DNA of 64,000 bases from an uncultured archaeon (GTDB taxonomy: Archaea; Aenigmatarchaeota; Aenigmatarchaeia; CG10238-14; SCSR01): NCBI GenBank assembly GCA_964372485.1, contig CAYJQI010000001.1, positions 323,110-387,109 of the forward strand, given 5' to 3'. The translations under genes and the position numbers were made by a program. How positions within the stretch are numbered: the first letter of the stretch is position 1; every line of letters begins with the position of its first letter. Below are positions 22,099-60,441 of the stretch, piece by piece. The notes under the pieces are model-generated. The model was not told the DNA's origin and searched no databases. It worked only from the letters and a program-made list of their open reading frames with translations.

Positions 22099-22743
22099 TT
22101 GTGCCAGATGCTTAAATCATATATGAAATCCACTAAATTGCCTGTTTTCAAAACATTGAGTGAAGGATTTGAACTGTTGAAAAATTATCCTATTATATTC
22201 GTCCCTGTGTTCATATCGACAGTTGCCTCCTTTTTGACACCTGATGATTTTCTGATATCAATTGCGAGTGCTCTTGTTCAGGGGTTTCTTTACCTGGTAA
22301 CTATAGTAATGACTTGGCAGGCGCTTACAAAAAGAAAAATTTTAATTGGGGATGCAGCTGAACTTTCACTTAAACGAGTTCCTCAGGTAATATTAGGTAC
22401 TATTCTTTTCTTCATTGCAATTGTAGCTGGTTTCATTGCGTTGATAATACCTGGAATTTTCCTTTCAATAAAGCTGGTTTTCTTCCAGTATTTTATACTT
22501 TTTGAAAATGTTGGAGTAATGGATTCTTTCAAGAAAAGTTGGAAAGCTACTGATAAAAATTGGTGGAGAATGTTTGCACTTAATTTGCTGCTTGTTATAT
22601 CCTTTATACCTGCGGGTGTAATATCACTTCCTGTAGCTTTTGTCAGTTCTATAGTTAGTATCATGTTATTGTCTGTACTTACAACAGTTGTTTCCGCTTG
22701 GTACACAACTTCTTTGGTTGTTGCTTATAAGAAATTGAGGTAG
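22099..22743 (+). CDS. Polytopic membrane protein.
   Basis: Four to five hydrophobic helices. Confidence 0.45.
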   Translation: MCQMLKSYMKSTKLPVFKTLSEGFELLKNYPIIFVPVFISTVASFLTPDDFLISIASALVQGFLYLVTIVMTWQALTKRKILIGDAAELSLKRVPQVILGTILFFIAIVAGFIALIIPGIFLSIKLVFFQYFILFENVGVMDSFKKSWKATDKNWWRMFALNLLLVISFIPAGVISLPVAFVSSIVSIMLLSVLTTVVSAWYTTSLVVAYKKLR

Positions 22744-22836
22744 TGTCCCCGATGGGATTTGAACCCACAACCTCATCCTTAGGACGGATTTGAACTACTT
22801 TCGTATTCGCTCTGGTCCAGGTTGAGCTACGGGGAC
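22744..22836 (-). tRNA. tRNA-Arg (anticodon CCU) with a roughly 17-nt intron at a non-canonical position (D-arm / anticodon-stem junction).
   Basis: Acceptor GTCCCCG/CGGGGAC, D-arm GCTC..GAGC, anticodon loop GTCCTAA, T-arm GTGGG-TTCAAAT-CCCAT, discriminator A. The 93-nt length requires an insertion after position 26. Confidence 0.7.
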
Positions 22837-34129: not shown

Positions 34130-34873
34130 ATGGCCATAATACCATTTGGATTATATGTAGTTTTGAATGGCGTAGAAAGACCAATAAGACCAGAAATATC
34201 CTTGCTAGGTAAGTCAAAATTTGATATAAGGCGATACACACAAAATCCAGATAATGGTGAAGTAGAATTAGATGATTCAAGAACAATCAACAGAATTGTT
34301 TATGCACTTCAGAGTGCAAGATCGGATAGATACGACTCATTAGCAAGAAGTCAGACTCTTGTAAGAGCAGGAAAGGTGACTATTGATGAAATGAGAGAAG
34401 CCTTATCCAAATTCGATGGTGAAATACGGGATTCCGATATGAGCGTGTGGGGTGAACTTATGGATTCACAACCTCAGTTAAGAGGATTGGAACTTCCTAA
34501 AGGCAAGAATGCACTTTTATACAGAGGACCATGGACAGTGAAAAGGGATTATGAGATAGATGTATTGACCATGCATGATCCAGAAAGAGATATTGTGCCA
34601 GTTTATGTGCCTGAACATATAGACTTCATTACTCAGGAATGGACGGTAGCAACAGAAGCAAATCCAGATACTACTCATTACACAGCTAATTTGGAATACG
34701 CAGAAGAAAATCCAAATGGACTCAATGCTCTCCGTTGGGACTTCGGGACCCCTGAGTGGCCGAGTCTCGAATCGGGCTGGGATCCGTTGGACGGGAACTC
34801 CGGGGGTGCCTTGTTGGGTAGTATACTGAAAATTGATGAAATTGTCGAAAGATTCGAAAGAACTGATCTATGA
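34130..34873 (+). CDS. Hypothetical protein. Its 3' portion contains an extreme GC spike (see findings).
   Basis: Continuous 247-aa ORF. The last roughly 45 codons switch to G/C-ending codons. Confidence 0.35.
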   Translation: MAIIPFGLYVVLNGVERPIRPEISLLGKSKFDIRRYTQNPDNGEVELDDSRTINRIVYALQSARSDRYDSLARSQTLVRAGKVTIDEMREALSKFDGEIRDSDMSVWGELMDSQPQLRGLELPKGKNALLYRGPWTVKRDYEIDVLTMHDPERDIVPVYVPEHIDFITQEWTVATEANPDTTHYTANLEYAEENPNGLNALRWDFGTPEWPSLESGWDPLDGNSGGALLGSILKIDEIVERFERTDL

Positions 34874-35072
34874 ACGAAACAACCACGATGAAACTGAAAT
34901 ATCAAACTTCAAAAACCCACTATTGAATTTCTAGAACACATAAAAGATCAAGTATGCTAGTTTTGTGTGCTTGTCTTGTGATTCTTTCCAGCCTGAAATA
35001 TGATGTACATAAAATAAAATTTTATTCCATCTTAAATTAATTTTTACTTTACTAATATTTAATTAGAACAAA

Positions 35073-36980
35073 ATGCCAAAGTCACGAACATCCAAGGTAA
35101 ATAGTAAGAAAATATCATTCGATGACATAAGATCTAGATATTTCGAATTTTTCAAGAAAAATGGCCATGTTATAGTTCCTTCAGCATCACTTATACCTGA
35201 AAATGATCCTACTACACTTTTTACAGGATCTGGTATGCAGCCATTAATCCCGTATCTAGTTGGTCAACCTCATCCCATGGGTAAAAGATTATGTAATTCC
35301 CAAAAATCATTCCGAGCTGAAGATATCATGGAGGTTGGTGATAATCGACATACAACGTTTTTTGAAATGTTGGGAAATTGGTCTTTGGGAGATTATTTTA
35401 AACAAGAACAATTATCGTGGTTTTTTGAATTTCTTACAGAAGAATTGAAACTTGATCCAAAGAAATTATACGTCTCAGTTTTTTCTGGAGATGAGAAAAA
35501 TAAAGTTCCTAAAGATGAAGAATCTATTGCAATTTGGAAAAAATTATTCGCAAAGAAAGGTATTGATGCAAACTCTGTGGATCTTGTTACAACTGAAAAA
35601 GGAAGCGAGTTGGGAATGCAAGATGGGAGGATTTTTTCATATGGTGCTAAAAAAAATTGGTGGAGTAGAGTCGGTTCTCCAGAAAATATGCCTACAGGCG
35701 AACTAGGCGGACCTGATTCGGAAGTTTTTTATGAATTCACTGATGTGAAGCATGATACAAAATACGGGAAGAAGTGTCATCCAAATTGTGATTGTGGAAG
35801 ATTTCTTGAAATCGGAAATTCAGTTTTCATGGAATATAAAAAATCTGCAGCAGGATTTGAAAAACTAAAACAGAAAAATGTTGATTTTGGAGGAGGATTG
35901 GAGAGAATAGCTGCTGCAATGGCAAATGACCCCGATGTGTTTAGAAATGATGTATTTCAGGAACTTTTTGAAGATATTCGAATCCGTCATGGATGGAATT
36001 ATAATGATGCGACTGAAAAGGAAAAGAAAGCAATGCGAATTGTTGCCGATCACATGCGTTCAGCAGTTTTCATGATTGGAGACGGAGTTACTCCTTCAAA
36101 TAAAGAGCAAGGATACATTTTAAGAAGATTAATACGAAGAGCAATTCATAGCGCACATGAGTTCAATTCACAAACTTCTGATTTGTATGTGCTTGTAGAT
36201 ACGATAACGAACTCGTATAAAATTTCATATCCTGATTTGCTTGCTAAAACTGTAGAGATCAGTGAAGTGTTTAGATTAGAAGAAGAAAAGTTTGGGAAAA
36301 CTTTGAAGAAGGGGTTGAAGATTTACGATTCTTTGGGTAAAAAAATTACAGGGGAAGAAGCTTTCATTTTATTCACAAGTCATGGATTTCCAATTGAATT
36401 GACACAAGAATTGGCAGAACGTGATGGAAAAACTATTGATATAGAATCATTTAAACAAAAAATGAAAGAACATCAGGAACTTTCACGAACTGCTGCTGCG
36501 GGAAGATTCAAAGGAGGGTTGGCTGATACATCGATGCAAACTACGAGATTGCATACAGCACATCATCTTTTGTTAGCAGCTTTGAGAAAAGTTTTAGGTG
36601 ATCATGTGCATCAGCGTGGAAGTAATATCACTTCAGAAAGATTACGAATAGACTTCTCACATCCAGCTAAATTGACTCCTGAAGAATTGAATAAAGTTGA
36701 GAATCTTGTTAATGAAAAAATAAAAGAGAATTTGGATATGGTGAGAAAAGAAATGTCGAAGGATCAAGCTATCAAACTTGGTGCAGAAATGGAATTTGGT
36801 GTGAAATATGGAGATATAGTTTCTGTTTATGTGGCACAAGACAAGAAAGGAAATATTTTCAGCAAAGAATTTTGTGGAGGTCCGCATGTGAAGAATACTG
36901 GTGAACTTGGGATATTTGAAATTATCAAGGAAGAGTCAGTTGCTGCAGGTATTAGAAGAATAAAAGCAATTCTTAAATAG
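35073..36980 (+). CDS. alaS: Alanyl-tRNA synthetase, short form (catalytic plus editing domains, no C-Ala domain).
   Basis: N-terminal FTGSGMQP, WSLGDYFK, editing motifs HTAHHLL and CGGPHV. Confidence 0.85.
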   Translation: MPKSRTSKVNSKKISFDDIRSRYFEFFKKNGHVIVPSASLIPENDPTTLFTGSGMQPLIPYLVGQPHPMGKRLCNSQKSFRAEDIMEVGDNRHTTFFEMLGNWSLGDYFKQEQLSWFFEFLTEELKLDPKKLYVSVFSGDEKNKVPKDEESIAIWKKLFAKKGIDANSVDLVTTEKGSELGMQDGRIFSYGAKKNWWSRVGSPENMPTGELGGPDSEVFYEFTDVKHDTKYGKKCHPNCDCGRFLEIGNSVFMEYKKSAAGFEKLKQKNVDFGGGLERIAAAMANDPDVFRNDVFQELFEDIRIRHGWNYNDATEKEKKAMRIVADHMRSAVFMIGDGVTPSNKEQGYILRRLIRRAIHSAHEFNSQTSDLYVLVDTITNSYKISYPDLLAKTVEISEVFRLEEEKFGKTLKKGLKIYDSLGKKITGEEAFILFTSHGFPIELTQELAERDGKTIDIESFKQKMKEHQELSRTAAAGRFKGGLADTSMQTTRLHTAHHLLLAALRKVLGDHVHQRGSNITSERLRIDFSHPAKLTPEELNKVENLVNEKIKENLDMVRKEMSKDQAIKLGAEMEFGVKYGDIVSVYVAQDKKGNIFSKEFCGGPHVKNTGELGIFEIIKEESVAAGIRRIKAILK

Positions 36981-44999: not shown

Positions 45000-45088
45000 G
45001 CTCCCGTAGCTCAACTTGGATAGAGCAAATATTATAGCTCAATTCCCTTCTAAGGAAGAGGTTGAGGGTTCAAATCCCTCCGGGGGCA
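45000..45088 (+). tRNA. tRNA-Arg (anticodon UCU) with a roughly 14-nt intron at a non-canonical position.
   Basis: Acceptor GCTCCCG/CGGGGGC, D-arm, anticodon loop CTTCTAA, T-arm GAGGG-TTCAAAT-CCCTC. The 89-nt length needs an insertion after position 26. Confidence 0.7.
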
Positions 45089-45341
45089 TATTTATACAAA
45101 TGGATAAATATTATTATGAATCCTTTACGCTATCTTGATGTTCACCGAGGCGATAATTTTTTCCAAATTGCATTGAAATTAAATGTACCAGGAAGTTATT
45201 TGTATAACGTAAGAAGACTTGTTGAACCAACATGGACTAGTCGAAGTATGGGATATTCTGGTGCTGCACTTTTAGAATTGCCTAAATTAGGTTTATTGTG
45301 TGTATTTTTGGGTTGGCACAATCTTTAAACTATAGAAAACT

Positions 45342-52712: not shown

Positions 52713-53165
52713 TTATCCTGTGCAAGATACTGCAGCTTCAATTGTTCTTCCTGCAGGTGGGGTTATTCTATAAACACAACTTCTTGCAACCCCAACGGTG
52801 GTGCATCCACGATCTATTAAATTAGCTGGTGCACCAGCCCCTACGGGAGATCTATCACCCTCCATGTCTAGAGTACCCCCACCACTAGTTCTAGTTACTG
52901 TTACTGATCCACAAGTTGCTACGTTTCCTGATATTGTACAATCTGCAAAAGTTCCTCCACTACCTACAAATGTAATTTCACTTGTACCGATATTTCTGAA
53001 TGCAATTCTTGCCTGAGTGCCAGCAGTGCAATAACTATCAGAAATATCAATTCCTTGAAGCTCTCTTTTGAATGAAGCGTTAATGAATGTATAAGCAGTT
53101 CCTGCCAAACCTATTGTAATCATCAGCATCAGAATAGTAGCAATAATCGTCGAAACCCCTTTCAT
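52713..53165 (-). CDS. Small pilin / archaellin-N-terminal-domain protein.
   Basis: MKG|VSTIIATILMLMITIGLAG class III signal peptide. Confidence 0.6.
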   Translation of the reverse strand: MKGVSTIIATILMLMITIGLAGTAYTFINASFKRELQGIDISDSYCTAGTQARIAFRNIGTSEITFVGSGGTFADCTISGNVATCGSVTVTRTSGGGTLDMEGDRSPVGAGAPANLIDRGCTTVGVARSCVYRITPPAGRTIEAAVSCTG

Positions 53166-59725: not shown

Positions 59726-60441
59726 ACATCTTCCCTCTTTAATATTTTTGATTCAAAACTACCATGAGTTAGATTCGAAAGTTTTTGAATAAAATCATCC
59801 ATGACTCCTGCAAGCATTTCTATGCTAACTTGCAATGAACCATCATTCAACCATTCTTCACTCAATAATTTTCCAGCGGATTTGACTACTGAAAATGACT
59901 TTCCAGCAACTTGTGGTTGGATTTTGACTTGAATTGTAACTTTTTGGAATCTGATCGGTATCAATGGCTTGATCGCAGGAATTACTTTTTCAACTTGGGC
60001 TTCTGCATCAATAAAAGGATCAATGTTCACACCAGCTTGGTGCATCGCATTCAATATTCTTTGTTCTGGATGAGGCGTATTTGTTTGAGGGTTTATTCCT
60101 CTTTTCGAAATAATTGACGCAACTAGGTTTCTTTTCTGTTCGACCATGGCTTTTCTCTGTTCTGTGGTTATTTGTATTTCCCCTTCTTTCAAAATTTTCG
60201 GAGCTATCTTCGCTACATCAGTTGTCCCGAAGGCTTTCTGTAGTTCACTGTCAGCCATAGTTTCTGCAGCCTTAACATCCTTGTAAACTGTCGGATATGC
60301 AAGTATTTCTTCCATAGAAACCGCCTTACCGCTCTTAAAATCCATCGCTTTATTAGGATCTACAAGCAGTTCAAACCTTTGGTTCGAGTAATTCAACCTC
60401 GCTATTACAGCCTTTTCTATACTTACCGTCAACAGAATCAC
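59722..60441 (-). CDS. sdo1: SBDS/Sdo1 ribosome maturation factor.
   Basis: VIARL...FELLVDP N-terminal pattern and gene context. Confidence 0.8.
   Translation of the reverse strand: MILLTVSIEKAVIARLNYSNQRFELLVDPNKAMDFKSGKAVSMEEILAYPTVYKDVKAAETMADSELQKAFGTTDVAKIAPKILKEGEIQITTEQRKAMVEQKRNLVASIISKRGINPQTNTPHPEQRILNAMHQAGVNIDPFIDAEAQVEKVIPAIKPLIPIRFQKVTIQVKIQPQVAGKSFSVVKSAGKLLSEEWLNDGSLQVSIEMLAGVMDDFIQKLSNLTHGSFESKILKREDV

Follow-up and report, generated by a model that had tools for sequence, protein, structure and literature searches.

The window (the whole stretch of archaeal DNA analysed here, 64 kb long, with a mean GC content of 34.9%) contains, upstream of alaS, an open reading frame (ORF) of 247 amino acids whose 3′ end carries a conspicuous GC-rich patch. 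The features at this locus are as follows.

34130-34873, forward strand: ORF of 247 aa, from an uncharacterised archaeal family whose closest orthologues are target genes of diversity-generating retroelements (DGRs)
34727-34822, forward strand: tract holding the GC spike, homologous to variable repeats (VRs) as aligned to the VRs and template repeats (TRs) of the orthologues; codons and amino acids 200-231 of 247, ALRWDFGTPEWPSLESGWDPLDGNSGGALLGS
34803-34822, forward strand: 3′ end of the repeat, IMH-like GGGGGTGCCTTGTTGGGTAGT, coding for the conserved G-A-L-L-G-S
34874-35072, no strand: intergenic spacer of 199 nt, empty where the orthologues carry a cassette of leader, TR and reverse transcriptase (RT)
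35073-36980: alaS (Pfam), downstream of the 199-nt spacer

The GC content reached 64.8% over 88 nt (34728-34815), ca. 6 SD over the window mean, and this was the top GC peak of the 64 kb in windows of 60, 90 and 130 nt alike. A preliminary description of this DNA had reported a spike of about 130 nt at about 65% GC; the spike is real but its length was overstated, as GC over 34720-34850 was 54% and the spike spans ca. 90 nt. The same description correctly placed the patch inside the 3′ end of an ORF (34130-34873) and noted a break in codon usage. Across the 29 codons of the spike, GC at third codon positions (GC3) was 76%, compared with 10%-45% in all other 20-codon windows of the gene, and GC1 and GC2 were 55% and 62%, respectively. 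The opposite-strand frame that it had remarked on as being kept open is the default outcome of a GC-rich, stop-poor stretch. Adenine made up 13% of the tract compared with 37% of the remainder of the gene, whereas thymine stood at 24%-25% in both and G and C increased. The GC spike is really a depletion of adenine.

No Pfam match was found for the 247-aa protein or for any of 31 family members, and Pfam returned nothing informative on the longer members of about 600 aa. Homologues were 45%-58% identical to the window protein, with seven relatives in a collection of 5.8 billion proteins and 49 among 1.84 billion representatives; the protein cluster of the window protein had a single member, and all gene contexts of the family were archaeal. 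Protein-based scans recovered no relatives in genome contigs and, in metagenome contigs, only L007-like and L005-like loci again. Three homologues at 55%-58% identity (L005, L006 and L007) carried a GC spike at the same position, with 63%-66% GC and a GC3 of 73%-77%, whereas L008, L003 and an in-genome paralogue, P0007 (L001), had none. This paralogue lies outside the window in the same genome (L001:4001-4837; 278 aa, 46% identical). It had a GC3 of 35% and 24% adenine, i.e., neither the GC nor the adenine-depletion signature, and no RT within 4 kb.

In a DGR, an RT copies the RNA of a nearby TR into cDNA, placing random bases opposite template adenines, and this cDNA then replaces the sequence of the VR, which lies at the 3′ end of the target ORF. 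The spike-bearing orthologues belong to such elements. In L007, a direct repeat of the spike lies between the gene and an RT (Pfam RVT_1) located 350 nt downstream, and the mismatches between the two copies are A in the downstream copy:

L007, 592-1476: target gene
L007, about 1192-1290: VR
L007, about 1693-1810: TR
L007, 1828-2922: RVT_1 reverse transcriptase

The cassettes of L005 and L012 had the same layout, with TR and RT immediately downstream of the target gene, and L006 retained the conserved leader at its contig end. The best matches of the RTs were labelled Aenigmarchaeota. When the L005 TR was compared with its own VR, all 19 mismatches fell on the 30 adenines and none on the 69 other positions (P about 5e-13 for 19 of 19 by chance); the corresponding counts were 19 at adenines and two elsewhere in L007, and 15 and one in L012. 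Homology between TR and VR ended at an IMH-like site with a fixed difference (TTGTTGGGTAGC in VRs, TTGTTGAATAAC in TRs). The orthologues thus have the defining VR features summarised by Wu et al. (2018; PMC5758913).

Diversification in the orthologues is live, as was seen directly between samples. Three proteins from different contigs and source records (P0002, P0174 and P0175) were identical over 296 aa except within residues 201-228. L006 and L012, which represent one gene in different samples, differed at 15 of 891 nt, all at nt 602-679 in the VR; every one of these differences was at codon position 1 or 2, and 14 coincided with TR adenines. Similarly, the 4 differences between L010 and L005 in 629 nt were all located where the VR begins. 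Among the active VRs, identity at third codon positions was 91%-100%, compared with 68%-82% at positions 1 and 2. These VRs contained 10%-15% adenine with a GC3 of 73%-77%, compared with 24%-25% and 35%-48%, respectively, in family members lacking the spike.

Two ORF groups flank the L012 cassette: a 68-aa winged-helix-like ORF ahead of it (L012:1987-2193), present in L006 too, and ORFs of 156 aa and 52 aa after it (L012:4550-5179), which had no Pfam match. Pfam was uninformative on the ORFs flanking the cassette and revealed nothing of the Avd type in L012. These ORFs are candidate accessory proteins acting in place of Avd.

The window tract at 34727-34822 was in register with four orthologous VRs (L005, L006, L007 and L012), and with the corresponding TRs, in every column of the alignment. 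Like a DGR VR, it lies at the 3′ end of a target ORF, is homologous to demonstrated VRs, is depleted in adenine, and varies at codon positions 1 and 2 with position 3 fixed. It was 81%-82% identical to the heterologous TRs at their non-adenine positions, where the spike-less family members reached 55%-62%. It nevertheless had 12-13 mismatches at these positions; therefore, its own TR, past or present, must differ from the TRs seen. Identity to the orthologues at third codon positions was 61%-70% in the VR compared with 46%-50% in the remaining gene. Within the spike, amino acids were poorly conserved and third codon positions were conserved, the reverse of ordinary coding evolution and the signature of DGR mutagenesis. 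The preliminary description had named, as evidence against its own reading, a C-terminal peptide conserved with synonymous variation; what was found is the converse, with variation at codon positions 1 and 2 and conservation at position 3. Its broader view held up, i.e., the stretch is unlike ordinary coding sequence and its make-up is set by a process at the nucleotide level and not by amino-acid composition. Its option of foreign DNA was loosely right, in that retroelement cDNA overwrites the tract in the orthologues.

The window retains CTTGTTGGGTAGT where the repeat ends on its 3′ side, in agreement with the VRs of the orthologues (TTGTTGGGTAGC) but not with their TRs (TTGTTGAATAAC). By analogy with the sites described by Wu et al. 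(2018; PMC5758913), 34803-34822 is a putative IMH. These bases code for the conserved LLGS, which is kept in spike-less family members too, so their conservation does not prove an IMH function.

In contrast to L005, L007 and L012, in which an RT lies near the target and the TR/VR pair differs at adenines, the window contained no such pair and no RT. Neither an ungapped scan nor gapped blastn-short detected a TR for the window VR in the 64 kb, and an adenine-tolerant block scan, which did recover the TRs of its three positive controls (L005, L007 and L012), found none in the window. A 30-nt near-match from the latter scan (60218-60247, reverse strand) lies inside an SBDS-like gene, does not extend and was dismissed as chance. 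The leader motif was absent from the window at up to three mismatches, and tblastn with the L007 RT gave no RT anywhere in the 64 kb. When genome- and viral-contig DNA was pattern-scanned for the leader and for the 5′ motif of the VR, the only matches were chance ones to bacteria and phages that are unrelated, and tblastn detected neither an RT nor a target there.

Outside the window, the genome encodes an RT, P0078 (L011:1-1248), that is 78% identical to the L007 RT and is preceded by the same leader of roughly 28 nt as the L005, L006 and L007 cassettes. It is taken to lie on the same contig of the 791-kb genome as the window gene. Its TR (L011 1-234) was unrelated to the window VR and had no match anywhere in the window; L011 starts 234 nt upstream of the RT, so that it does not show the target gene of P0078. 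The P0078 TR ends in GGTCTTGGTTTCCGCCCAATAACC (GLGFRP), a canonical C-type-lectin-style VR end.

Taken together, these findings suggested, with a probability of roughly 0.8, that the GC patch is the VR of a DGR target gene, recently written by a DGR and now orphaned, static and evolving as ordinary coding sequence. The DGR membership of the window copy would follow from homology and composition and not from a demonstrated cassette; its orphan state is suggested by the lack of a TR, leader and RT nearby together with an in-genome RT whose TR is unrelated. The composition itself was measured, and the mechanism behind it is proposed from established DGR biology. Invariant scaffold codons of a TR would have to avoid A, and mutable AAC and AAT codons would be randomised at positions 1 and 2 with C or T held at position 3. 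A tract written in this way would become adenine-poor, producing a spike in GC and codon usage in a genome of 35% GC. In the window, the cassette may then have been lost or retargeted, leaving the VR behind. A GC3 that is still 76% in a genome of 35% GC speaks for either a very recent orphaning or continued activity; the orphaning, if real, was thus recent, with GC3 undecayed.

Continuing activity would take the form of a remote target, in which a matching TR elsewhere in the 791-kb genome, at a distance of over 29 kb, diversifies the window VR in trans. In its composition (13% A, GC3 76%), the window VR could not be told apart from active VRs, and the genome encodes a DGR RT that is closely related (P0078). 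Among cellular DGRs, targets lying over 100 kb away from their RT have been documented (Wu et al. 2018; PMC5758913). The TR and RT searches covered 64 kb of the genome, and the other 727 kb could hold a remote TR. However, TRs usually lie directly beside the RT (PMC5758913), and the sole TR seen beside P0078 was unrelated to the window VR. Furthermore, contigs of two sequencing runs (ERR3478686 and ERR4904391) ran through the VR unbroken and matched the window there at 100% identity, over 12.8 kb and 4.7 kb, although the two runs may sample one population and Logan contigs may suppress minor variants. By comparison, an orthologue sampled three times (P0002, P0174 and P0175) gave three different VRs in an otherwise identical gene. 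We therefore regard a remote, active target as improbable, though not far-fetched. A purely protein-level origin, in which a Gly/Trp/Pro/Arg/Asp-rich loop requires GC-rich codons or the tract was recombined from a GC-richer relative, is very unlikely. The peptide is indeed rich in G, W, P, D and S, with a GC1 of 55% and a GC2 of 62%, and protein-level conservation is seen in the flanking motifs ALRW.F and GALLGS. Amino-acid content, however, does not set synonymous sites, where GC reached 76%, and L008 and the paralogue L001 encode the same kind of loop at a GC3 of 35%-37% with 24%-25% adenine. The patch also occupies the identical position in orthologues, in which the TR explains it base by base, and the flanks are collinear with the orthologues without an insertion boundary, which speaks against recombination.

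In AT-rich archaeal genomes, a GC-rich island is often the mark of an RNA gene, and a further reading of the patch, that of an embedded structured non-coding RNA, sense or antisense, takes up the idea favoured in the preliminary description. By eye, local hairpins can be traced in this 3′ part of the ORF, and cmscan gave a marginal match to the C/D-box sR46 (E = 3.8). Nevertheless, the sole Rfam match in the whole 64-kb window at the gathering threshold was a tRNA (45021-45080), and 34500-35100 yielded nothing relevant at E up to 10, only noise at E > 3. The strong pairing potential claimed for the stretch did not exceed chance: the minimum free energy of 34720-34850 on the forward strand was −40 kcal/mol compared with −41.2 ± 3.7 kcal/mol for dinucleotide shuffles (RNAfold; z +0.32), and z on the reverse strand was −0.72. 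Any sequence of such composition would thus pair as well. RNAalifold on the four orthologous GC-rich tracts gave weak consensus structures with many broken pairs and a positive, i.e., unfavourable, covariation term on both strands (+2.19 and +1.75 kcal/mol); compensatory pairs numbered 0-2 among 20-30 predicted, from four sequences only. Apparent covariation in three hairpins (CCGA/TCGG, GCCGGA/TCCGGC and CCGTA/TACGG) was rejected as support, the varying bases being TR-adenine sites. A structured RNA also does not predict variation between samples that is restricted to TR adenine sites and codon positions 1 and 2. The patch resembles the GC-rich non-coding RNA islands of AT-rich archaea in its sharp local GC excess but differs from them in being coding and in lacking excess folding stability, an Rfam match and covariation. 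A structured RNA, including the RNase P or SRP RNA suggested as examples, is accordingly scarcely credible.

One aspect of the protein may fit the orphan VR less well. Display of the VR on a C-type lectin fold has been described as systematic for DGR variable proteins (Roux et al. 2021; PMC8144416). AlphaFold2, run with an alignment of 31 sequences, modelled the 247-aa protein with a pLDDT of 93.4 and a pTM of 0.91. The N-terminal part of the model is helical; the C-terminal part is rich in beta structure and includes three predicted strands formed by the VR (198-204, 212-217 and 225-231). Foldseek found no significant match for the full model in PDB or BFVD or for a model of the C-terminal domain (pLDDT 83.6) in PDB, and a profile search against PDB sequences also gave no significant match. 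In particular, no match to C-type lectin variable proteins of the Mtd, TvpA and AvpA types appeared in the Foldseek or profile searches. The modelled target fold, being without a match to the fold usual for DGR variable proteins, may count against the DGR reading. By eye, neither a signal peptide nor a transmembrane segment is obvious at the N-terminus, an unusual situation for a DGR target.

The TRs of the orthologues contain inserts that are absent from every VR. A 15-nt insert was found in L005, L007 and L012, and an extra 21-nt insert in L012 only:

L005, 4985-5003: TR insert
L007, 1717-1735: TR insert
L012, 3345-3363: TR insert
L012, 3405-3425: TR insert

Each insert pairs with TR sequence just upstream to form a hairpin. 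In the 15-nt hairpin, two base pairs differ between L005 and L007/L012 by compensatory changes. The VRs lacking these inserts are the actively rewritten ones, which suggests that the inserts are skipped during cDNA synthesis (template jumping) or removed by processing of the TR RNA before homing. Bulge-helix-bulge mini-introns were considered and rejected as an explanation, as the VR misses only the 3′ strand of the hairpin and the loop and not both strands. TR/VR length differences are known from about 7% of DGRs (PMC5758913); conserved TR-only hairpins were not found described in the DGR literature as far as its text was available. A more speculative proposal, which we consider rather unlikely as a whole, is that the family is a DGR target showing its variable residues on a fold other than that of C-type lectins, that its DGR is non-canonical in skipping TR hairpin inserts, and that the window genome records a retargeting. 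In such a retargeting, the same leader and RT may now stand beside a different, GLGFRP-type TR, with the former target left as a fossil VR.

DGRs are common in DPANN archaea (PMC6349945), and those of DPANN archaea, CPR bacteria, Nanoarchaeota and archaeal viruses have been treated by Paul et al. (2015, 2017; as cited in PMC6349945 and PMC5758913) and in the catalogue of Roux et al. (2021; PMC8144416). The orthologous loci resemble DPANN and CPR elements in the compact order of target gene, TR and RT, the VR at the 3′ end, the adenine-specific mismatches and the small-genome archaeal hosts; non-A substitutions and 3-nt indels opposite AAC occur likewise in the CPR set (PMC5758913). They differ in the 15- and 21-nt hairpin inserts of the TRs, in the lack of an Avd-type protein recognisable by Pfam in L012, and in a target family without a Pfam domain or a Foldseek match to C-type lectin variable proteins, whereas the window copy differs in having no TR or RT nearby. 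With the DGR of Bordetella phage BPP-1, the defining system (mtd VR, TR, brt and avd), they would share a common mechanism of A-to-N mutagenic retrohoming into a 3′-terminal VR. Mutable AAC/AAT units and non-identical repeat 3′ ends (IMH-like and IMH*-like) occur in both, but the present elements differ in their host, which is an archaeal cell and not a phage, and in the position of the TR, which lies immediately ahead of the RT. Downstream of the window VR, no inverted repeat rich in GC was noted, and the C-type lectin fold of Mtd was not detected. The tvpA paralogues of Treponema denticola, which are remote targets (PMC5758913), resemble the window gene in that the VR gene lies far from the RT in a genome encoding a DGR RT. 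Known remote targets, however, match the TR of the resident DGR, whereas the window VR did not match the resident TR (L011 1-234).

A striking compositional anomaly could thus be explained without a new RNA. For AT-rich DPANN genomes, this might provide a simple rule: a patch of ~90-100 nt that is depleted in adenine, has fixed third codon positions and lies at the 3′ end of an ORF would be a DGR footprint even without a nearby RT. Orphan VRs of this kind escape DGR finders that are anchored on the RT and may record past retargeting of retroelements. In addition, a confidently modelled fold with no structural match offers a test case for the restriction of DGR targets to C-type lectin scaffolds.

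Several other observations were made in the window. The second-highest GC peak (52790-52880, 54% GC) falls in a 150-aa ORF on the reverse strand (52713-53165) whose hydrophobic N-terminus resembles that of archaeal pilins (class III signal peptide-like) and whose body is rich in Gly, Ala, Thr and Cys; the peak was rejected as a second VR, as the ORF is pilin-like and the sequence matches neither TR. The adjoining alaS (35073-36980) encodes an AlaRS of only 635 aa, comprising the catalytic and SAD domains, which is short for an archaeal AlaRS. Inside its 3′ end lies position 36896, the shared end point of two Logan contigs (37.6 kb and 4.7 kb) that come from independent runs, which points to a repeat or strain polymorphism just downstream. 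ARAGORN called a 91-nt tRNA-Ala(agc) at 45000-45089 and a 94-nt tRNA-Phe(aaa) at 22743-22836. Rfam covered only 45021-45080 of the former (model positions 8-63) and did not report the latter. The anticodon assignments of both look doubtful, and the one at 45000-45089 has a long insertion around the anticodon arm, perhaps an archaeal intron.
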